DNA of 49,584 nucleotides from Bacteroidota bacterium (GTDB lineage Bacteria; Bacteroidota; Bacteroidia; Bacteroidales; CAIXTV01), in assembly GCA_037144095.1 (NCBI GenBank), contig JBAWXL010000003.1:1-49584 (forward strand), in the 5' to 3' direction. The translations under genes were made by a program, and so were the position numbers. The notes beneath the pieces were generated by a model, which saw only the letters and a list, made by a program, of their open reading frames with translations, did no database searches and was not told where the DNA came from. Each line of letters opens with the position of its first letter. Positions within the stretch are counted from its first letter, which is position 1. This document shows positions 2,139 to 33,157 of the stretch, in pieces.

Positions 2139-2212
2139 AAACCTCCTTTCTTTTTAGGCTCATTAAATACTCGCGAGGTATTTTTCCCCCTATTAAGAAG
2201 GAGGTTTTTTTT
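2139..2212 (+). ncRNA. Candidate ~70-nt hairpin sRNA, or a terminator/attenuator
   Basis: TACATTTG -7 box at 2130-2137, then an extended stem (aaacctcctt..tagg..aaatac / gtattt..ccta..aaggaggttt) and a T8 run. Confidence 0.35.
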
Positions 2213-2354
2213 ATTATATGTAGTCGGTTTTATAAAAAACACAAACAAATTATTGTTTTTAAAGCAAATAGGATAAGGAAAACTATTGTAAGTTTTCATG
2301 AGGTTGGATGTATATTTTGAATTTGCAAGTATACAACCTTATAAGAAAATAATT

Positions 2355-2416
2355 TGTAAGATATGGCTGATTTTTGTGTAGGGATTGTCTGATATTTATG
2401 TAGGACATATCCTACA
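2355..2416. promoter_or_regulatory. Three 22-bp-spaced pseudo-palindromic operator sites (LuxR/NarL-like)
   Basis: TGTAAGATATGGCTGATT (2355), TGTAGGGATTGTCTGATA (2377) and the inverted repeat TGTAGGA-cata-TCCTACA (2399). Confidence 0.45.
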
Positions 2417-2735
2417 GGCAATTTTAAAGCTATAATTTCTACCATTTCATAATTATTGATATTCAGTATAATAATAAGGTTTCTCCATGTTTTTAAGCTT
2501 ATAAAATAGTTTTCAATATGAAATGTGTTTTAGCTAATTCAATTATACTATTCGAAAGAGTGAAAATAAAATTAGGAATTTCCGTTATTAATAGTAATTT
2601 TGCCGTCTATAATTTTAATTATAAATCTGAAATCATATTATTAATTACATATAATAAAATATCAATCATAGTTCAAATTCACACAAAATAATATAAACAA
2701 CAGTATATAAGCATATTACAACAATTTAAAACAAG

Positions 2736-3155
2736 GCAAATCAAAATTTACACGCTACGAATTAACTCTTGCATGCCACGAATCAATTTTTACATGCTAC
2801 GAATTAACTCTTACTCAACACTAAACAAACTTCACCCGCTATGAATCAACTCTTGCTTAAAACTAATTGGCTCTTGCATATCACTAATTAATTCTTACAA
2901 ACCACAAATTGGATCTAACCGGAAACTAATTACGCCCAACACCACACGATTTACCTCTAACACTTTACGAATTAAATACAGCAGCCAACTAACTAAGAAC
3001 CACACAAAACGAATTACCACCAACATCCTGCTAATTCAATGCTAAATAAAAAGAAATACTATTGAGTAATAAAATATCAATCCTATCACTAATCGAAGCC
3101 TTATCATCCAATAACTAATCCCTATTAGCAATTAACTATTAACCAATCACCAACA
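2736..3155 (+). repeat. Degenerate 21-bp-period tandem array (13-15 clear units, phase traceable to ~20 units)
   Basis: AC(G/T)AAT(T/C)-like heads at 2757, 2778, 2799, 2820, 2841, 2862, 2883, 2904, 2925, 2946, 2967, 2988, 3009, 3030, and in phase again at 3114 and 3135. Confidence 0.85.
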
Positions 3156-4102
3156 TGGAAACAAGATCAGCAAATCAGGTAAACGAAATCCGCGCAACTT
3201 TTCAATTTTGTACATCCAATGCAACTTCAACATCAAGTATTTTAGCATTTGCAGGTGTGTTGGCAACAGTGGGCAACAAACTCATTTTAATTGATAGTTA
3301 CGATATTATTGCTGAAGCCACCACCAAAGGAATTACTCTTGATACAAAAGAAGTACGCAGTGTAATGGAATTCTTCGCTTATAAATGTTTAAATGCAGTC
3401 ATTGCTTTTGCATCACCGGCACCTGCCAATAAAACTTTAATCGCCTTAGTTAAATACAGCAAAACCCAGCTTCGTGAAGCCAAAAAAGAAGATATTGCTG
3501 CAATTTGCGAAACCATACGTAAGGCAGCACACGATAATTCGGGATGTTTAAGTAATGGTATTACTGTTTCAGATATTACAGACCTGGCATCTGCAATTTC
3601 ATTGTATAACACAGCAAGTTCAAATCCTCGTCAGGCTATTATTGAAAAAAGTTATGCTAAAGAGCAAATCAAAGTCTTAACTAAAGAAATTCAGCAAGAT
3701 TTGTTCAAAAATCAAATGGACACTATGGTTAACACCCTCATTGGTTCAAATGATGCATTTGTTGAAAAATATTATAAAGTTCGCAAAATTGTTAACCTCG
3801 GTATATCACATACCAAGTTCAAAGGCACTGTTACAAAAACGGATAAAACGCCTATCCCTGTTGCCATACTAAAAATAATGGCAACAGGCAAACAAGAAAT
3901 TGATTATACCATAGAGGCAGATGTCAATGGAGTATTTCCCAATACCTACATCAAACCCACCGATTACGATATGCAGATTGAGTGTCCGGGCTACATAACA
4001 CAAAATGAAATAAAAATACATTTCACCGCCGGCAAAGCCCTTAAACGCAGCTATATTCTTATCCCCACCCCGCCACCAATCCCCACTCCCCCCACCGAAT
4101 AA
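3155..4102 (+). CDS. Hypothetical protein: helical N-domain, carboxypeptidase-regulatory-like beta domain, Pro-rich tail
   Basis: 315-aa ORF with no signal peptide. C-terminal KGTVT..PIPVA..DVNGVF..Y.MQIECPGY pattern. Confidence 0.75.
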   Translation: METRSANQVNEIRATFQFCTSNATSTSSILAFAGVLATVGNKLILIDSYDIIAEATTKGITLDTKEVRSVMEFFAYKCLNAVIAFASPAPANKTLIALVKYSKTQLREAKKEDIAAICETIRKAAHDNSGCLSNGITVSDITDLASAISLYNTASSNPRQAIIEKSYAKEQIKVLTKEIQQDLFKNQMDTMVNTLIGSNDAFVEKYYKVRKIVNLGISHTKFKGTVTKTDKTPIPVAILKIMATGKQEIDYTIEADVNGVFPNTYIKPTDYDMQIECPGYITQNEIKIHFTAGKALKRSYILIPTPPPIPTPPTE

Positions 4103-4226
4103 GCTTCTAAAATTAACAATCGTTATTCCTTGTTCTTATATTCTTCTTCTTTTGTGCCCTACTGTGCCTACTGTGGTTCTTATTAATCTAAAAAGATAGA
4201 AACTGTTAAACTAAAATCGTATTAAT

Positions 4227-4259
4227 AAAAAAGCCGGCAATTCAATCATTGCCGGCTTT
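4227..4259. terminator. Intrinsic terminator between convergent genes
   Basis: aaagccggcaat/attgccggcttt stem with an A-tract. Confidence 0.8.
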
Positions 4260-4279: not shown

Positions 4280-5074
4280 TTATTCGCTTACAATAATTCT
4301 TTGGGTCTGTTGTGTTTTCCCTGTGTTTATTTTAACCAAATACACTCCCGCTTTCACATTTCCTTTTGACGAAAGAGGCAAGCTATAATTACCTGCAGTT
4401 TGGTTGTCGTCTAACAACACATCAACCAATCTTCCTGAAATATCATACAAACTAACCGTAACATCCGAAAACTCAGTAATCGAATATTTAATCATGCTTT
4501 GGTTTGTAACAGGATTTGGAGCAACTGTAAAAGCAGGTTTTGCCTGCTGATCTTCGATTCCGGCACCTGATGCAGGAGCCCAATCAAGGGTGATACCTGT
4601 TAGGTTGGTCAAATCTGCAGGAGCTTGATGATCTGCAGTAGCACCTTTTGTAAAGCTGAATGATTGAACAGTTTTACCCGTGGTTAAACTCGAAGCCCAG
4701 GCAAATTCAATCCAAACTTTGTAAGTGCCATCGGCTACAAGAGCTGACGAAACATCGGTTCCGTTCCAAACTAAGGTCATTAAACCATTAGCCGTACGTG
4801 TGCTTCCTGAAGTAGCATCCACAACGTTTTGTCCTGATTTCCCTGTCCAGGTGGCAAGGTGATCATAATTGCCGCTTGAGCAATATTTGAATTTTGTTTT
4901 AATAAAAGTTCCACTGCTGGTTTCTATCCAAGCAGCTAAACAGTTTTTTGGAGTATATCCACCTGATGAAACAGTGGTATAAACACAAGTTAATGTACCG
5001 GCGGTTTGAGCACTCAAACCAACACTAAAAAATAAAGCCAAAATGGCCAATGAAAAGGTAATTTTTTTTCTCAT
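4280..5074 (-). CDS. DUF2271-domain protein with T9SS type A C-terminal sorting domain
   Basis: Signal peptide; AAWIE..FIKT..VDATSGSTR..WNG.D..DG.YKVWIE; C-terminal PNPV..LYDISGRLV..GVYLVKI. Confidence 0.75.
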   Translation of the reverse strand: MRKKITFSLAILALFFSVGLSAQTAGTLTCVYTTVSSGGYTPKNCLAAWIETSSGTFIKTKFKYCSSGNYDHLATWTGKSGQNVVDATSGSTRTANGLMTLVWNGTDVSSALVADGTYKVWIEFAWASSLTTGKTVQSFSFTKGATADHQAPADLTNLTGITLDWAPASGAGIEDQQAKPAFTVAPNPVTNQSMIKYSITEFSDVTVSLYDISGRLVDVLLDDNQTAGNYSLPLSSKGNVKAGVYLVKINTGKTQQTQRIIVSE

Positions 5075-5164
5075 ATGATATGTATTAAATTAATGGGTCA
5101 AAAATAATAATATTTCTAATAAAACAAATTAAATTGCAGTCATAAAATAAAATAATTACAATGA

Positions 5165-5212
5165 AAAAGCCTGTAAGCAACATTATTTTTGTTGATTGCA
5201 GGCTTTCTTTTT
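5165..5212. terminator. Hairpin/terminator downstream of the cytochrome operon
   Basis: aaagcctgtaa.caaca...tgttg.ttgcaggcttt with flanking A/T runs. Confidence 0.55.
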
Positions 5213-5310
5213 GAAATAATCTTTTACAGAATGTATGATTTTATAAGCTGAATTCGAAAAGAAAAGAATAAAACTAAGCTAAATTTTGAGCTATCTTTAT
5301 GATATTAATG

Positions 5311-5380
5311 TGCCACAGATTAACAGATTACTTCATTAACAAGATTAGATGTTTACTTACTCATCTGCGAATCTGTGGCG
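5311..5380. repeat. GCCACAGATT...AATCTGTGGC REP-like palindrome
   Basis: Inverted arms. 5359-5379 is the exact reverse complement of 41029-41049. Confidence 0.7.
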
Positions 5381-5411
5381 ATTTATTTTCTCAACAAGTT
5401 TACAAAGAATC

Positions 5412-6911
5412 CTATTGATATAAATTGCTATGACAATCAGAACAATTCGATACTTTCCAGGCACTCTTAATATCAACCGGATGCTTGAAGTTTAAAGCAC
5501 CATTGATGCCAATATAATTAATGCTATCAGCTTTCCCTTGCGCCACAATGGTATGACAAAGATTACAATCCTTAGAAATCACTTTTCCTTCAGGCGATTT
5601 GAACCTATCATTATGACATCTGAAACATCCTTCCGATTCTAAGTGTCCAATATGACGAGGATAAACACTATACGTAACCTTCATTTCAGGGAAAGCATTT
5701 TTGCCAAAAGCTTCTATAATTGCATCAATAGCACTTGCTATTTTATTACCATAAAGCTTGTAGATGGTAGGATAATGCTCCTGATAAGTCTTTATTATTT
5801 TACTTTTAATTCCTGAAACAGCAGCTTCATCAGTAGTATATGGATCTTTTAAAGCCTCCATCGCAGCATTTTTAATCCATGGAATTTTAGCAAAATCATT
5901 CTGAGCCGCCAACACATCATTCACATATTTCGAAGGCGAACGAAACTCATGCGAAGGACGGTTATGACAATCCATACAATCCATAATTCGCGATTCAGAC
6001 TTACTTAAATCTTCTCCCTTGCCTTTGAGTTCAGGATCTTTATATATGGTTTCTTTTCCTGATTTTTTATCAAGGATTTTTACCCAAAAAATAGTATCGC
6101 GTTTTGCATTAGATTTATAATCAATCTGAAAATTCTTATTAATATGCCAGTGAATTCCTTCGGCTAAACCCAACGCTTGATGACTGGCTCCGATTTTCAT
6201 ATTTAAAATTACGTCCCATTGTGTGTTTGCCGAATCGGCAAGAAAATATTTTTCGTGACGCAAAGCATTGGTGTAGAACTTTTGAGGCCAGTGGCATTTC
6301 TCGCAAGTTTCTCTTGCAGGACGTAAGTTTTCAATTGGGGTTACAATGGGTCTGACATAAGTGTTTAAAGAATATTTAAAAACCTGACGTAAACCTGACA
6401 TCTTTGATTTTACATAAAAATCTGCACCCTCTCCCACATGACATTCAGCACATTTTACTTTCGCATGAGGCGAATTCTGATAGGCAACATATTCGGGATT
6501 CATCACTTTATGACAAAGTTGTCCACAAAATTCTATCGACTCGGTATATTGAAAAGCCTTAAAGCTTCCTATTGCTGTAGAAATAACAAAGAAAACAGTG
6601 ATAATTCCAAAAATGATGAGTGATTTTCTGGTCTTTTTATCTCTAAGATTCAGCACAAAAACTTTATCATCAGCACCCGGAATTCCTCTCTTAATTCTGC
6701 TTCTTCTGCGAAGCATCCCAATGGGAATAAGAACTAACCCAAGCACTAAAAATCCTGGGATAACGATATATGTGAATAAATCAAAATACACATTATCAAT
6801 ATTGAAGATAAAAATCTGAATCATAAATAATAATAAGGTTACGGTTGCAATAAAAGCAATAATACTTCCCAGATAGGAAATACTATTATAATAATTACGT
6901 GATAATTTCAT
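5412..6911 (-). CDS. ImcH-like NapC/NirT-family inner-membrane 7-heme cytochrome c (putative quinol dehydrogenase)
   Basis: Three N-terminal hydrophobic helices, 6 CxxCH plus 1 CxxxCH (FCGQLCH), and RPIVTPIENLRPARETCEKCHWP. Confidence 0.8.
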   Translation of the reverse strand: MKLSRNYYNSISYLGSIIAFIATVTLLLFMIQIFIFNIDNVYFDLFTYIVIPGFLVLGLVLIPIGMLRRRSRIKRGIPGADDKVFVLNLRDKKTRKSLIIFGIITVFFVISTAIGSFKAFQYTESIEFCGQLCHKVMNPEYVAYQNSPHAKVKCAECHVGEGADFYVKSKMSGLRQVFKYSLNTYVRPIVTPIENLRPARETCEKCHWPQKFYTNALRHEKYFLADSANTQWDVILNMKIGASHQALGLAEGIHWHINKNFQIDYKSNAKRDTIFWVKILDKKSGKETIYKDPELKGKGEDLSKSESRIMDCMDCHNRPSHEFRSPSKYVNDVLAAQNDFAKIPWIKNAAMEALKDPYTTDEAAVSGIKSKIIKTYQEHYPTIYKLYGNKIASAIDAIIEAFGKNAFPEMKVTYSVYPRHIGHLESEGCFRCHNDRFKSPEGKVISKDCNLCHTIVAQGKADSINYIGINGALNFKHPVDIKSAWKVSNCSDCHSNLYQ

Positions 6912-6942
6912 TTGAAATTGTTATTGGGTTTAATTTAATATC

Positions 6943-7683
6943 TTATTTGAACTCTAACGGATTATGAGCGATATGACATTCAATACACTTCATATCCGGA
7001 TTATGTTCTTTATTGTCTATTTGTTTAATGCCTTTTGATGCAGCATTTGAATGGCATTTTAAGCAAGCATCTCTTATGCTTGGCTTAGTAATATTTTTCT
7101 TTGAGGGACCTTGCATGTGTTCAACTCCCTGTCCATGACATGATTTACAATCAACCGGATGGTGTTTTCCTTTTTGTTTTACTTTATCTATTTTCTCGTG
7201 ACACATCAGACACGAAAAGCCCCCTTCTTGATTTCCTTTTCCGGCTCCTTTAAATTGCATAGGATTATGTGGATTATGACAAGTTACGCATTTGGCGTTC
7301 ACATTGTGTTTTGTCAAATCAACTTGTTTGATTGAATCCTTAGCGTGAGCAGTATTTTTATCATGACATTTTCCACAAAATTCTCTTGTGTTTGTCCTGT
7401 CTAATGGATGTTTCTTTTGGTTAGTTATGTGTTTCGAACCAGCTCCATGGCAAGTCTGGCAATTGATTTTGCTATGAACCCCGGTCGAAGTTAATGTATC
7501 AATATTGCTATGACAACTTTTACAAAGAGCTGTGTTAATGAATTTCTCTTTTACATTAGTTGAATCTGAAAGTTTCGTCTCAGGTTTCTCCGAATTGGAA
7601 GACATCATAAAATAACCAATCAGGACAATTAAGCCAATCAGGATAATAAAAATTAGAATAAGACTTTTAACACGTTTAGCCAT
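6943..7683 (-). CDS. Membrane-anchored octaheme cytochrome c (two tandem tetraheme repeats)
   Basis: N-terminal TM helix, 8 CxxCH, and internal duplication ending in HNP motifs. Confidence 0.85.
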   Translation of the reverse strand: MAKRVKSLILIFIILIGLIVLIGYFMMSSNSEKPETKLSDSTNVKEKFINTALCKSCHSNIDTLTSTGVHSKINCQTCHGAGSKHITNQKKHPLDRTNTREFCGKCHDKNTAHAKDSIKQVDLTKHNVNAKCVTCHNPHNPMQFKGAGKGNQEGGFSCLMCHEKIDKVKQKGKHHPVDCKSCHGQGVEHMQGPSKKNITKPSIRDACLKCHSNAASKGIKQIDNKEHNPDMKCIECHIAHNPLEFK

Positions 7684-13271: not shown

Positions 13272-13321
13272 AAGTTGGGATAAAACATTAAAGCAATAAT
13301 GTTCTATCCCAATTTTTTTTT
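13272..13321 (+). terminator. Intrinsic terminator
   Basis: ttgggata.aacatta/taatgtt.tatcccaa followed by a T-run. Confidence 0.7.
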
Positions 13322-13346
13322 ATCAAAATATCAAAAACTAAAAACC

Positions 13347-13500
13347 CTTCGAAGGAAGTTTTAATATCTTCGAAGCTTTTTCTCCTTCTTCGAAGGAAGT
13401 TTTAACATCTTCGAAGCCTTTTCTCCTACTTCGAAGGAAGTTTTAATATCTTCGAAGCCTTTTCTCCTACTTCGAAGGAAGTTTTAATATCCTCGAAGCT
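13347..13500. repeat. 41-bp tandem repeat (~3.7 copies) with palindromic CTTCGAAG every 21/20 bp
   Basis: CTTCGAAG at 13347, 13368, 13388, 13409, 13429, 13450, 13470; CCTCGAAG at 13491. Confidence 0.9.
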
Positions 13501-13794
13501 AAGCATAACACTCTTGGAAAACAATTCTACTAAACTGAATATAAACTTAATGCAAATTCAAATTCATTTAGATTCAGCAACAACAATTTATAAAACATTT
13601 AAATTAACTCTCAAAACTTAATTGGAGAAGTCGAACCTACAAAAAATGAAGTTTAATCAAATCAACATTCATAAGCTCGTTCCAATTTTAACTTCAAATA
13701 CTTCAACCAAACATTCATTGTCACTCCACCAAGTTCAAATCTGAATTATTTTGCTACATTTGCATTCAAATTCAAATTAAACAAATACTTTATC

Positions 13795-14391
13795 ATGAAA
13801 AAATTATTTTTCTTCCTTGTAGCATCTGCATTAATCCTCAGTCTTAACATCGGTTGCAATAGTTGTAGCAACCAAACCGCTGACTCAACCAAAGTAAGCA
13901 ATGTCCTCTCCGTCGATAGTTTCTTAGTAGCTCCCGAAAAATGGGCCAACAAAGAAGTCGTTATCTCCGGAACCGTATCTCACGTTTGCCGCCATAGTGG
14001 CAAAAAACTTTTCCTGTTCGGCGCTAATGCTGAAAAGACCGTCAAGATTAATGCGGGTGGCAGTTTCTCTACTTTCGATTTAAAATATGAAGGCGTCGAC
14101 TTAGAAGTTACCGGCACCGTAGTCGAAGACGAAAAAATTGATGCCAATTATTTAAATGAATGGGAAGCCGACATCAAGAAAAGTGTTGCCGACAAAGATC
14201 AAAAGGTATGTAACGAAGAAAACAAAGCCATTACCGGTCAAACTAATGTAAAAGGGAAACAAGACTCAGTTGTTGAAGATCCTTATGCCGATGTGAAAGA
14301 ATTCCGCAAAAAACTTGCTGCAAGTGGAAAAACTTATATTTCGGTTTATGCCATCAATTGCAAAACAATTAAGGAGCTAAAAAAGAAGTAA
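13795..14391 (+). CDS. Hypothetical OB-fold-like lipoprotein/secreted protein
   Basis: Signal with Cys, GTVSHVCRHSGKK motif, TACATTTG -7 box upstream. Confidence 0.7.
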   Translation: MKKLFFFLVASALILSLNIGCNSCSNQTADSTKVSNVLSVDSFLVAPEKWANKEVVISGTVSHVCRHSGKKLFLFGANAEKTVKINAGGSFSTFDLKYEGVDLEVTGTVVEDEKIDANYLNEWEADIKKSVADKDQKVCNEENKAITGQTNVKGKQDSVVEDPYADVKEFRKKLAASGKTYISVYAINCKTIKELKKK

Positions 14392-17276: not shown

Positions 17277-17332
17277 ATTACCAATCACCGGTTACCGATT
17301 ACCTATCACTGATTACCGTTTACCAATAACCC
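17277..17332. repeat. Heptamer tandem repeat (ATTACCR-like x8)
   Basis: attacca atcaccg gttaccg attacct atcactg attaccg tttacca ataaccc. Confidence 0.8.
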
Positions 17333-18368: not shown

Positions 18369-18540
18369 AAAAAGGTCAAATTATAGACACGCAAAGATAG
18401 ACTTTTTTATTTTCCTACAAGTTTTGGAATATAAATATGGTTAATTCTTTTATTCGAACTGTATCCTATTTTTTTATGATTTCTTAGAAATATGATTAAA
18501 TAACATATATTCTGCATATTACAAGAAAATAAGGTTTCAA

Positions 18541-18666
18541 AATAGTGCTATAAAAAATCGTTACAGTGCTATTTCAATTTTTTATAGTGCTAAAAGAAAT
18601 CGAAATAGTAGAATTTCAAATTAAAATAGTGCCATCCCAATTTTTAATAGCACTATAAAAATAGGC
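18541..18666. repeat. 21-bp-period array (6 units, WATAGTGCTA core)
   Basis: Units at 18541, 18562, 18583, 18604, 18625, 18646. Confidence 0.8.
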
Positions 18667-18844: not shown

Positions 18845-19660
18845 ATGTCAAAATTCAGAGAAGAACCCAAAATAACCACCCACACCCTTCAGGAGATGAA
18901 GCATTCGGGCGAGAAAATAGCTATGCTCACCGCTTACGATTATTCAATGGCACGTTTGCTCGACAGTGCGGGAGTGGATGTGATACTGGTAGGCGATTCG
19001 GCATCCAATGTGATGGCGGGCTATCGCACCACCTTGCCCATCACCCTCAACGAGATGATTTATCATGGTTCGTCCGTACAACGTGGAGTAACTCGCGCTC
19101 TGGTGGTGGTCGATTTGCCCTTTGGCACCTATCAGGGAAACTCAAAAGAAGCTCTTAATTCAGCCATCCGCATCATGAAAGAATCGGGCGTAGATTCAGT
19201 CAAACTCGAAGGCGGAAGCGAAATCATCGAATCGGTTGAGCGTATTTTATCTGCCGGCATTCCGGTGATGGGACATTTGGGCTTAACTCCTCAATCTATT
19301 CATAAGTTTGGAACTTATGTTGTGAGAGCCACCGAACCCAAAGAAGCCGCCAAACTTATTGAAGATGCCCATAAGCTTGAAAAAGCAGGTTGTTTTGCCC
19401 TGGTACTCGAAAAAGTGCCTGCCACATTGGCAGCTAAGGTGGCAAGTGAACTGACTATACCCGTGATTGGTATTGGCGCCGGAAACAAAGTAGATGGTCA
19501 GGTATTGGTGTTGCACGATATGTTGGGCATTACGCTGCAATTTTCACCGCGCTTCCTGCGAAGATATGCTAACCTCAGCGAAGAAATCATTGGTTCGGTT
19601 ACTTCCTATATTAATGATGTAAAATCGGTTGATTTCCCGAATGAGAGAGAACAATATTGA
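18845..19660 (+). CDS. panB: 3-methyl-2-oxobutanoate hydroxymethyltransferase
   Basis: [34 protein letters not shown] -7 box at 18818. Confidence 0.98.
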
Positions 19661-31520: not shown

Positions 31521-31639
31521 TTTAGGCTGAAGGATTTTAGGCTGAAGGGGGGAAGTCCCAAGTCTCAAATTTCAAATTCCAAGTCCCAAGGGGTGCTCTC
31601 CTTGGAATTTGGGGCTTGGGACTTTGAATTTGGGGCTTT
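31521..31639. repeat. Composite REP-like element (TTAGGCTGAAGG x2 plus heptamer hairpin)
   Basis: Homologous to 27172-27337. Confidence 0.75.
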
Positions 31640-31658
31640 AATAATAAGCGTATTACGG

Positions 31659-31859
31659 GCAAAGTTCACGTGAACTTTTAGCATAATACGCATACTAGGA
31701 GCAAAGTTGGCGTGAACTTTTGGCATAATACGTATACTACGAGCAAAGTTCACGAGAACTTTTAGCATAATACGCATACTAGGAGCAAAGTTCACGAGAA
31801 CTTTTGGCATAATACGTATACTAGGAGCAAAGTTCACGAGAACTATTGGCATAATACGC
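31659..31859. repeat. 42-bp tandem repeat x~5 with an 18-bp palindrome AAAGTTCACGTGAACTTT
   Basis: Units at 31659, 31701, 31743, 31785, 31827. Confidence 0.92.
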
Positions 31860-32176: not shown

Positions 32177-33157
32177 ATGTATACCCTTGATTGGCAAGGA
32201 AGTCATGATATGTTTCATGGTCCTATGAAAGAAAGCGTCGAAAACGCACTGGGCATTGTAACTTACACACACGATGTGTTATATACTTATCAAGCAAGCC
32301 CTCCTCACCCCTTGTTCGTAACAATTTATGGCGAAACACACATCGGGTTTCAAGCCCTGCTCGACACGATGAGGCTTAAATACAGTATGTTTTCAACAAA
32401 AATCGGCAGCACCGATTTGGTAGAAACTAAGTATATGATTTTTAGCGAAAGATTAGATCATTTCGACGATTTAATTCGCGCTGTTTATGGCAAACGCACC
32501 AACGAATATAAAAGCATTTGGGGCAACGACCGCAATCGTTTTTATCGCGGTTCTTATGAAAATAGAGAAGTTGCCTTAAAAGGTCTGGCCACCGCAATGG
32601 GCACTTTTAGTGGTTTAACTGCCGCAGCCGCCGAAGTGATGGCATATCATGACGACCTTAAAGCTGCACGCACAGCACAGCACGGATTTATTGGCGATTA
32701 TAATACCGATAGCTCAGATGTGATTGATGCCGTTAATGCTCTTATTTTACAACAAAACCGCAATCTTGGTTTTTTAAGATTCTTCTATTCACTGGGTCCC
32801 GATCCACAAAAAAAAATCAATTCATTTTTCGATTTGAGCAAAATCATGAATCATGGTCATGATAAAAAATATCTGAAACATATTCCTGCCGCCGGATTCG
32901 TAAAAATATGCATTCATCATACTAAACCTACCGATAAATTCAGAATTTTGGTAGATGGAACCGAAGATGCCTACATCAGTTCAGCCATCGATAATAACAC
33001 TCCCGGTAAGACTACTGATTTCAAAGCCACAGCAGGAGTCCAATACGAAAAACCATCCACACAAGTATTATCCGATCTCACTAAAACCCATATCATTGCC
33101 ACCAACTCAAGCCTGACCACGGCAACACATATTGTTTTTGAGATAATTGAGGAATGA
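32177..33157 (+). CDS. Hypothetical protein: helical N-domain (..FFDLS) plus C-terminal beta-rich domain
   Basis: 326-aa ORF, no signal peptide, A-rich leader, followed by a terminator. Confidence 0.75.
   Translation: MYTLDWQGSHDMFHGPMKESVENALGIVTYTHDVLYTYQASPPHPLFVTIYGETHIGFQALLDTMRLKYSMFSTKIGSTDLVETKYMIFSERLDHFDDLIRAVYGKRTNEYKSIWGNDRNRFYRGSYENREVALKGLATAMGTFSGLTAAAAEVMAYHDDLKAARTAQHGFIGDYNTDSSDVIDAVNALILQQNRNLGFLRFFYSLGPDPQKKINSFFDLSKIMNHGHDKKYLKHIPAAGFVKICIHHTKPTDKFRILVDGTEDAYISSAIDNNTPGKTTDFKATAGVQYEKPSTQVLSDLTKTHIIATNSSLTTATHIVFEIIEE

Follow-up and report, generated by a model that had tools for sequence, protein, structure and literature searches.

Tandem repeats that keep one unit length while their sequence varies have already been catalogued in bacteria. 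Subirana and Messeguer describe such repeats of constant size (20-21 and 52 nt) in Bacillus and mention them for Cyanobacteria and Actinobacteria; in the parts of their paper that deal with them, the length is noted as two helical turns, most repeats of one species have a short conserved word in common, and the function is given as unknown, with a polymerising nucleoid protein or small RNAs as the proposals (PMC8161180). In Porphyromonas gingivalis, BrickBuilt combines a minisatellite with a transposable element of the miniature inverted-repeat kind in intergenic DNA and is discussed, in the sections that describe it, as influencing neighbouring genes (PMC4596501). A recent language-model survey of intergenic periodicity, as far as its reported clusters go, lists periods of 60-79, 18, 5, 10, 8 and 7 and not 21, having discarded those clusters that had both a period divisible by 3 and a peak at lag 3 (10.64898/2026.10.21.760802). 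Here I analyse an array of 21-bp units at positions 2748-3041 of a 49,584-nt stretch of DNA from a Bacteroidota bacterium (contig JBAWXL010000003.1; hereafter the window), upstream of a gene for a 315-aa protein. The array class is the one catalogued by Subirana and Messeguer; the new part is a quantified, polar and family-specific coupling to genes (21-bp arrays with famA, 42-bp arrays with famB and famC, all three labels being coined in this analysis), together with a paralog pair that shows concerted change at a fixed period.

The array at 2748-3041 and its gene

The locus consists of the following features, of which the third matches TAnnTTTG, the consensus of the Bacteroidetes -7 promoter box (the promoter-box counts below use this consensus):

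2748..3041, no strand: core tandem array, 14 units of exactly 21 bp each, in register
3042..3154, no strand: degenerate gene-proximal tail of the array, where the promoter is expected
2595..2602, + strand: TAATTTTG, a TAnnTTTG match 146 bp upstream of the first unit
3155..4102, + strand: gene for the 315-aa protein (famA), of a Bacteroidota-only family

When the core is written in rows of 21, a head word starts at 2757 + 21n in 14/14 successive units with zero indels (ACGAATT, ACGAATC, ACGAATT, ACTAAAC, ATGAATC, ACTAATT and ACTAATT in units 1-7; ACAAATT, ACTAATT, ACGATTT, ACGAATT, ACTAACT, ACGAATT and GCTAATT in units 8-14). Positions 15-16 from the head are GC or AC in 13/14 units and AA in the last. 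Lag-21 identity across 2748-3041 is 0.568, above both the mean (0.354) and the highest value (0.424) of the maxima over all lags from 5 to 63 in 2000 mononucleotide shuffles of the same sequence, and the autocorrelation of 2700-3155 is 0.52, 0.53 and 0.50 at lags 21, 42 and 63 and about 0.29 elsewhere. Tandem Repeats Finder picks up no more than the two stretches that are kept best (2748-2814 and 2844-2910). Units 1-3 are almost identical and the later ones drift, so that the window array is best kept at its gene-distal end. The unit has a single internal palindrome, GCATGC (6 bp), and an own-genome DNA search with 2740-3050 as the query matches only the query.

A preliminary description of this DNA, made from the letters alone, had already seen much of this: the indel-free recurrence of the head every 21 bp, the purine-C dinucleotide kept at unit positions 15-16, the greater likeness of distal units and the promoter box at 2595 all hold. 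The return of the phase at 3114 and 3135, which it also reported, is seen in the head-like words ACTAATC and ACTATTA. Its last unit does end on the A of the start codon (3135+20 = 3155), a 1-in-21 coincidence. Its figure of about 20 units comes down to 14 clear units and two phase-keeping echoes, and the start that it placed at 2694 has to be moved, since 2694-2747 is without periodicity.

The 315-aa protein is modelled (mean predicted local distance difference test, pLDDT, 88.6, with 17 aligned relatives) as a long-helix bundle at residues 1-212, a transthyretin-like or CarboxypepD_reg sandwich at 220-301 and a Pro-rich tail, which agrees with the helical/beta-sandwich protein first described. 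Its only Pfam match, PF13620, has an E of 1.2e-05, below the cut-off, and its fold matches (carboxypeptidase D, the SusC N-terminal extension, pilin domains) are confined to the C-domain. The helical part found no convincing fold match in Foldseek searches of PDB and BFVD or in a VIA-align wide search, where helical rows reach Z <=8.9, the range that VIA-align calls common for helical bundles. No signal peptide was seen at the N-terminus by inspection. The gene is not the orphan that it was taken for, since famA has about 45 members in this genome (jackhmmer on a crude open reading frame, ORF, set). An Atlas search with the protein returned Bacteroidota hypothetical proteins only; the family is large in metagenomes, with 667 cluster representatives at E<=1e-30, many of which are long multi-sandwich proteins that match the C-domain only.

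The genome-wide class and its gene families

The window belongs to a draft genome of 4.70 Mb (471 contigs, 87% complete). Tandem Repeats Finder, run across all of it with rows kept at >=4 copies and >=100 bp, gives 200 rows at period 21, 107 at 42 and 18 at 63, as against 7 at 20, 8 at 22, 12 at 41, 3 at 43 and <=12 at any other period. Merged arrays of period 21, 42 or 63 number 321, with a median of 205 bp and 65.7 kb in all (1.4% of the 4.70 Mb). Their consensus units differ across all 321, the best circular match between units averaging 9.6/21. Once ORFs made largely of array are removed, 310 are intergenic; 61 touch contig ends, and in the 249 away from contig ends the copy number peaks at 9-12 units. 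The window locus is not special, being one among 321 arrays, most of them beside unrelated genes.

The arrays are coupled to certain gene families and lie on the 5' side of them. By a lag test that also detects degenerate arrays, a 21-type array is found upstream of 32/39 famA genes and downstream of 0/38, against 231/3186 upstream and 204/3164 downstream for all genes (Fisher p 4e-31 for the upstream enrichment). Of the 39 famA genes, 23 have a fundamental period of 21, six of 42 and one of 63, and nine have none. An array precedes 18/19 famB genes, at period 42, 41 or 43 in 12, 4 and 2 of them, and 42-bp arrays are present in 6/6 famC genes. Clusters defined by blastp give upstream and downstream counts of 14 and 0 (of 21), 10 and 0 (of 15), 6 and 0 (of 6) and 4 and 0 (of 5). 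Supporting this, an initial own-genome protein search returned six paralogs of the 315-aa protein, five of them with a 21- or 42-bp array 100-500 bp upstream, each array with its own unit.

The coupling extends beyond this genome. The preliminary description had tied the array to the gene and named homologs without arrays as the finding that would speak against the tie; a 5' array is present at 9/15 homolog loci of relatives in the same order and at 18/22 loci with upstream DNA in named freshwater Bacteroidetes and Chitinophagales assemblies (two of the 18 being one locus in two assemblies), so this objection falls away. The unit is different at each of these loci.

Among the families beside arrays, 10/11 representatives of the multi-copy ones have no Pfam match, the eleventh (famA) matching CarboxypepD_reg only. 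The famB protein (326 aa) has no Pfam, PADLOC or NCBIfam match and is modelled as a long-helix bundle with a C-terminal beta domain, the same plan as famA. Over the helical part, profile-profile comparison of the two reaches a probability of 14% (E 0.0019), which falls to 0.1% when a single sequence is used; the models point to a common architecture, with sequence homology not shown. In a ~210-aa unannotated family without a Pfam match, 8/10 members are followed by an array past their 3' end and none is preceded by one; in the one case examined (contig C11, 20486-21319), the next gene encodes a SprB-repeat protein secreted by the type IX secretion system (T9SS).

How the arrays change is visible in recent paralogs. 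In a pair at 84% protein identity, which has a common divergent neighbour gene, the arrays occupy the same place and register and their units agree at only 13/21; the flanks are clearly alignable and visibly better kept than the arrays, one 44-bp block being without mismatch. Where the proteins are 75% or 72% identical, the units agree no better than the null. Judged from these alignments, the arrays evolve concertedly, each homogenising its own variant, with turnover faster than in the flanks and the period fixed. At the syntenic site in a same-genus genome (contig C42 of G001, locus L030, 1900-2280), beside the ortholog of the T9SS-tail gene, a pair of neighbouring 21-bp arrays, each with a unit of its own, is accompanied by two small ORFs on the minus strand (71 and 55 aa) and by no famA gene.

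The 44-bp block lies on the side of the array towards famG, a label coined here for the unannotated family divergent from the famA gene (own genome, C261 about 2152-3103 and C7 about 13314-14139, reverse). It opens with a short hairpin, CACCT...AGGTG, in surroundings visibly less kept, and may be a regulatory element. Similarity links 132 array flanks of 300 bp via several kinds of small palindromic elements, one AAGTCCCAAG...CTTGGGACTT-like and another AAACCTAACAGGTTT...AAACCTGTTAGGTTT-like, seen at 31553-31640 of the window, at 787-870 of locus L002 and in many array flanks of this genome. Conserved array-specific ends were rejected on this account, the flank similarity being that of the small palindromic elements.

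Elsewhere the window contains at least two further arrays, a famB gene and a hairpin behind the 315-aa gene:

31641..31859, no strand: second array, 5.2 units of 42 bp, 317 bp upstream of the famB gene
32177-33157: famB gene, 326 aa, with the 42-bp array 31641-31859 upstream
13347..13499, no strand: third array, 3.7 units of 41 bp (21+20) with a CTTCGAAG palindrome
4230..4259, no strand: terminator-like palindromic hairpin with a 12-bp stem, common to the convergent genes

In the third array 21- and 20-bp half-units alternate, with CTTCGAAG at the start of each. It lies 295 bp upstream of a gene (13795-14391) for a 198-aa protein without a Pfam match, whose one NCBIfam match, weak and below the threshold, is to the N-terminus of a PG1828-type lipoprotein. 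Two short arrays stand at 17277-17331 (2.6 units of 21 bp, in which 7 bp is a sub-period) and 18539-18632 (2.2 units of 42 bp), the latter just upstream of a ketopantoate hydroxymethyltransferase gene at 18845-19660. Downstream, the minus-strand neighbours at 4280-7683 encode two multihaem cytochromes c of 499 and 246 aa and a protein sorted by the T9SS, in which FlgD-Ig and DUF2271 domains are present. The 3' end and flank of the 315-aa gene (4067-4166) have 35-67-bp matches at 77-92% identity in at least six places of a same-genus genome. This flank was rejected as the end of a module, having only four short matches in its own genome (C5, C342, C40 and C4).

A DNA-level reading and its rivals

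A repeat of 21 bp spans two turns of B-DNA, and where the arrays stand relative to promoters bears on whether they work as DNA. In the median case the ATG is 286 bp away from the array. Of 258 array-facing genes, 160 have TAnnTTTG between array and ATG, so arrays as a rule lie upstream of the promoter. The box occurs 20-120 nt before the ATG at 121/258 array-facing genes, compared with 872/3222 (27%) of all genes, and <=200 bp upstream of the array at only 41/258. A sigma-70-type scan, uninformative for this phylum, gave 15 sites against 12.8 expected. Furthermore, the arrays have no strand polarity: when the 147 arrays that face one gene only are all oriented towards it, AT skew comes to -0.003 (p 0.85) and GC skew to -0.03 (p 0.14), and no k-mer bias survives 79 tests.

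The reading that I favour, tentatively, makes the array a docking lattice of helically phased DNA that lies upstream of the promoter, is inherited together with its gene and evolves concertedly. The window array is one of a lineage-wide class of non-coding tandem arrays whose sole common property is a unit of 21 bp (or 42 or 63) and a length of ~9-12 units. It would act as double-stranded DNA and not as RNA or protein, each unit showing the same face of the helix, and a sequence-tolerant polymerising protein, nucleoid-associated or regulatory, would assemble on the lattice just upstream of the promoter and set the expression of the adjacent gene. Array and gene are inherited as a module, famA with 21-bp and famB and famC with 42-bp arrays; unequal exchange within each array would homogenise its units and so let their sequence drift fast, while changes of unit length would be removed. 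A two-turn unit matters only for double-stranded DNA, which is why a docking lattice at the level of DNA is favoured, and the lack of strand bias together with the placement upstream of promoters points the same way. The preliminary description had left the choice between a phased lattice and a repeat RNA; of the two, the lattice remains the better, if tentative, reading, while the RNA finds no backing in strand bias, folding or Rfam. The data establish the period lock, the non-coding character, the missing strand polarity, the position on the 5' side, the joint inheritance with gene families and the rapid concerted divergence; from these I infer the binding of a protein, control of transcription through that binding, and selection rather than mutational bias as the keeper of the period. 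The last step is an argument rather than a measurement, and follows from the rarity of periods 20 and 22 among units whose sequences have reached saturation with substitutions.

Several observations weigh against this reading. Docking is itself deduced, the binder being only postulated. The period could come from a common ancestral array instead of selection, and it is likewise argued, not measured, that without selection indels would have scattered the periods. Of the 209 arrays with two called neighbours, 47 sit between convergent genes and have no facing promoter (the gene calls used for orientation leave out ORFs <80 aa), and 245/310 arrays have no member of a multi-copy unannotated family alongside. 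In a random set of 29 single-copy genes with an array <=800 bp upstream, 15 encode ordinary enzyme, transporter or membrane Pfam domains (acetate kinase, PheT, LytB and DprA are examples). The polarity of decay toward the gene is drawn from 46 arrays, 30 in favour and 14 against, with two tied (p 0.006). A/T phasing at 10.5 bp is not raised either, the second harmonic being 0.084 in 184 units and 0.091 in controls; with neither A/T nor AA/TT/AT harmonics above those of random intergenic 21-mers, selection for intrinsic curvature is not supported and was rejected. The window locus itself has just one exact TAnnTTTG, at 2595 and thus upstream of the array; between array and ATG there is none, the nearest box there being TACTATTG at about 3057 with one mismatch. 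Finally, a metatranscriptome contig of 227 nt covers 2671-2897 at 100% identity, although this is weak evidence.

A bolder version of the lattice, which I consider unlikely, would make the arrays nucleation platforms of a lineage-specific, chromatin-like control, in which a protein reads the helical phase instead of the sequence, polymerises over ~10 units (~210 bp) and silences or insulates roughly a hundred fast-diverging helical-bundle and beta-sandwich genes (famA with 21-bp, famB and famC with 42-bp arrays). If that were true, only some members of the repertoire would be expressed at a time, and the system would be a bacterial counterpart of variant gene family control in eukaryotic microbes.

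The rival that survives best, somewhat doubtful as it is, regards the arrays as neutral or selfish minisatellites without function, their period fixed by 21-bp-biased slippage or unequal exchange or by ancestral descent, which build up in tolerated long intergenic DNA and are copied along with neighbouring genes. Arrays do occur in 59% of gaps of 600-800 bp, 68% of those of 800-1200 bp and 89% of those >1200 bp, in every gene orientation (including the 47 convergent cases) and with no sequence in common; no 4- to 6-mer is common to more than a minority of 184 consensus units, the commonest enriched words being CG-containing 4-mers in <=34/184. Fast concerted divergence is typical of satellites, and the syntenic site in the same-genus genome, with two other arrays and no famA gene, also speaks for this rival. 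The strict 5' placement at famA and in the equally one-sided blastp clusters is harder to reconcile with neutrality, as is a period held at 21 or 42 despite saturated units and a copy-number mode as narrow as 9-12 units. Units are also richer in G+C than array-free intergenic DNA (38% vs 29%) and in dyads, with an inverted-repeat arm of >=5 bp in 34% of 184 units, 13% of shuffled ones and 20% of random intergenic 21-mers. Another study's DNA contig, which spans 2644-3167, shows no difference and no change of copy number, in a single comparison of contigs only. Even if neutral, the arrays would be evidence that repeat length obeys an unusually strict rule, mutational or selective, and they account for most long intergenic DNA and many contig breaks in this clade's assemblies.

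It is improbable that the array works as a transcribed repeat RNA, whether as a long 5' leader or as a separate small RNA serving as sponge, scaffold or regulator of the downstream message. The 52-nt repeats of the same class are reported, in the passages on them, to be transcribed in Bacillus coagulans (PMC8161180; PMC8625621), and at the window locus both the exact box at 2595 and the metatranscriptome contig over 2671-2897 would fit such a transcript. That contig is one of only four from RNA libraries at the locus (2064-2259, 2671-2897, 3436-3607 and 4302-4400), which may reflect DNA carry-over, carry no strand or ends, and are uninformative about the parts that they leave uncovered. Against a transcript stand the missing strand bias and the position of boxes between array and gene noted above, a plus-strand fold of the window array no better than shuffles (-19.7 vs -18.9 kcal/mol, z -0.24), the lack of any Rfam match at E<=1, and a period of two DNA turns that would be meaningless for RNA.

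Still less likely is a cognate operator lattice, by which the 315-aa protein would autoregulate through its own array and each paralog would recognise a private unit, in the manner of iteron-Rep or centromere-binding pairs. In its favour, the coupling is tight and 5'-polar, each paralog does have a private unit, dyads are enriched, and a spacing of 21-22 bp is typical of iterons. The protein, however, is a long-helix bundle with a transthyretin-like sandwich in which Pfam, PDB sequence and fold matches reveal no helix-turn-helix or other DNA-binding fold; it has no Rep family match in Pfam and no winged-helix match in the fold searches, in which the helical domain is without a clear match, so that it might be a binder of a novel kind. 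No nucleic-acid-binding fold appears in the model or the matches. Paralogs that are 72-84% identical have units that agree at only 9-13/21, most arrays (245/310) have no such gene alongside, and some 320 arrays in a 4.7-Mb draft of 471 contigs do not fit replicon or partition sites.

Two further explanations are very improbable. The first, a decayed or unannotated heptad-repeat coding sequence (21 bp being 7 codons), was raised in the preliminary description from a plus-strand frame with one stop, a frame that does run across 2748-3041 with a single stop (the other five have 6-13), and 21-nt coding repeats are reported for other bacteria in the sections on them (PMC8161180). The arrays are nevertheless non-coding: 70/260 are closed in all six frames, variability shows no period-3 pattern (share in the best codon phase 0.439 vs 0.446 shuffled), the mean number of open frames is 1.6 in real arrays, 3.9 in perfect tandems of consensus units and 3.6 in perfect tandems of random intergenic 21-mers, and no relative has an intact ORF across the array among the loci read. 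A coding repeat was rejected on these grounds.

The second, an array of guide RNAs from a system like CRISPR, TIGR or VIPR, is suggested by the conserved head and more variable tail of each unit, and is countered by variable parts of 5-8 nt that recur, often in A-B-A-B higher-order patterns, and by a period of 21 against the 60-79, 18 and 5 nt reported for those systems (10.64898/2026.10.21.760802), the poor fit to CRISPR or TIGR unit sizes having been recognised from the start. The variable tails are ordinary unit divergence and do not resemble unique spacers; the longest variable run within units averages 7.4, against 7.0 shuffled, which gives no sign of clustered variable positions in a test blurred by indels. 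The comparison with phage and plasmid sequence proposed at the outset gave no match to the array (BLAST, low-complexity filter on). The 315-aa protein matches no PADLOC defence family and no NCBIfam model, and six other array-side proteins have no PADLOC match, two of them having far-sub-threshold NCBIfam matches only.

Comparison with known systems

CRISPR, TIGR and VIPR systems resemble the present arrays in having tandem units with better- and less-kept parts and a protein gene alongside; they differ in period, in unique spacers, in an effector family and in strand polarity. A CRISPR array alternates repeats of ~23-55 nt with unique spacers of similar length, near cas genes; here the whole unit is 21 bp, the variable parts recur, and the adjacent protein has no PADLOC match, with no dedicated search for cas genes having been made. 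TIGR-Tas has an array with an 18-nt sub-period beside a Nop-domain Tas protein, whereas the period here is 21 and Pfam finds only the weak CarboxypepD_reg match in the adjacent protein.

Iteron-Rep and plasmid centromere systems come closer in layout, with direct repeats at about two helical turns, an adjoining gene and a sequence private to each, all of which are seen here. However, iterons occur once or a few times per replicon and these arrays number 321 in 4.7 Mb, the adjacent protein shows no winged-helix or ribbon-helix-helix fold in its model or the fold searches, plasmid matches are absent, and the array sequence changes without a matching change in the protein. BrickBuilt, with a unit reportedly of about 41 bp, is likewise a non-coding intergenic minisatellite of the Bacteroidota. 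In the account of it considered here it is a single sequence family, carried in many copies on a transposable element with inverted ends, whereas each array here has a private unit; nothing else in the genome matches the window array, and the similarities between array flanks are not array-specific ends. A contingency locus (VNTR) would vary in copy number between strains or within populations, and the one contig comparison available, over 2644-3167, reveals no such variation.

The closest likeness is to the class of Subirana and Messeguer. Of its four listed features the present arrays have three, namely a unit length fixed at 20-21 nt (here 200 rows at 21 vs 7 and 8 at its neighbours), unit sequences that differ between arrays of one genome and a non-coding nature (here 70/260 without an open frame); the fourth, a short word common to the units, is lacking in 184 units. 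In some lineages that class, too, reaches many arrays in one genome. The paper does not use the words upstream, intergenic or promoter, its sections 3.3 and 4 describe neither coupling to gene families nor placement relative to genes (PMC8161180), and the word Bacteroidetes is absent from the two searched papers of these authors. A search of the literature on 21-bp repeats in Bacteroidetes or Bacteroidota found no account of this clade's arrays. Constant-size, variable-sequence repeats have so far had no known function or partner, and this genome offers a handle on both: famA almost always has a 5' array, a second and a third family have the double-length version, and recent paralogs display the array changing while its period holds.

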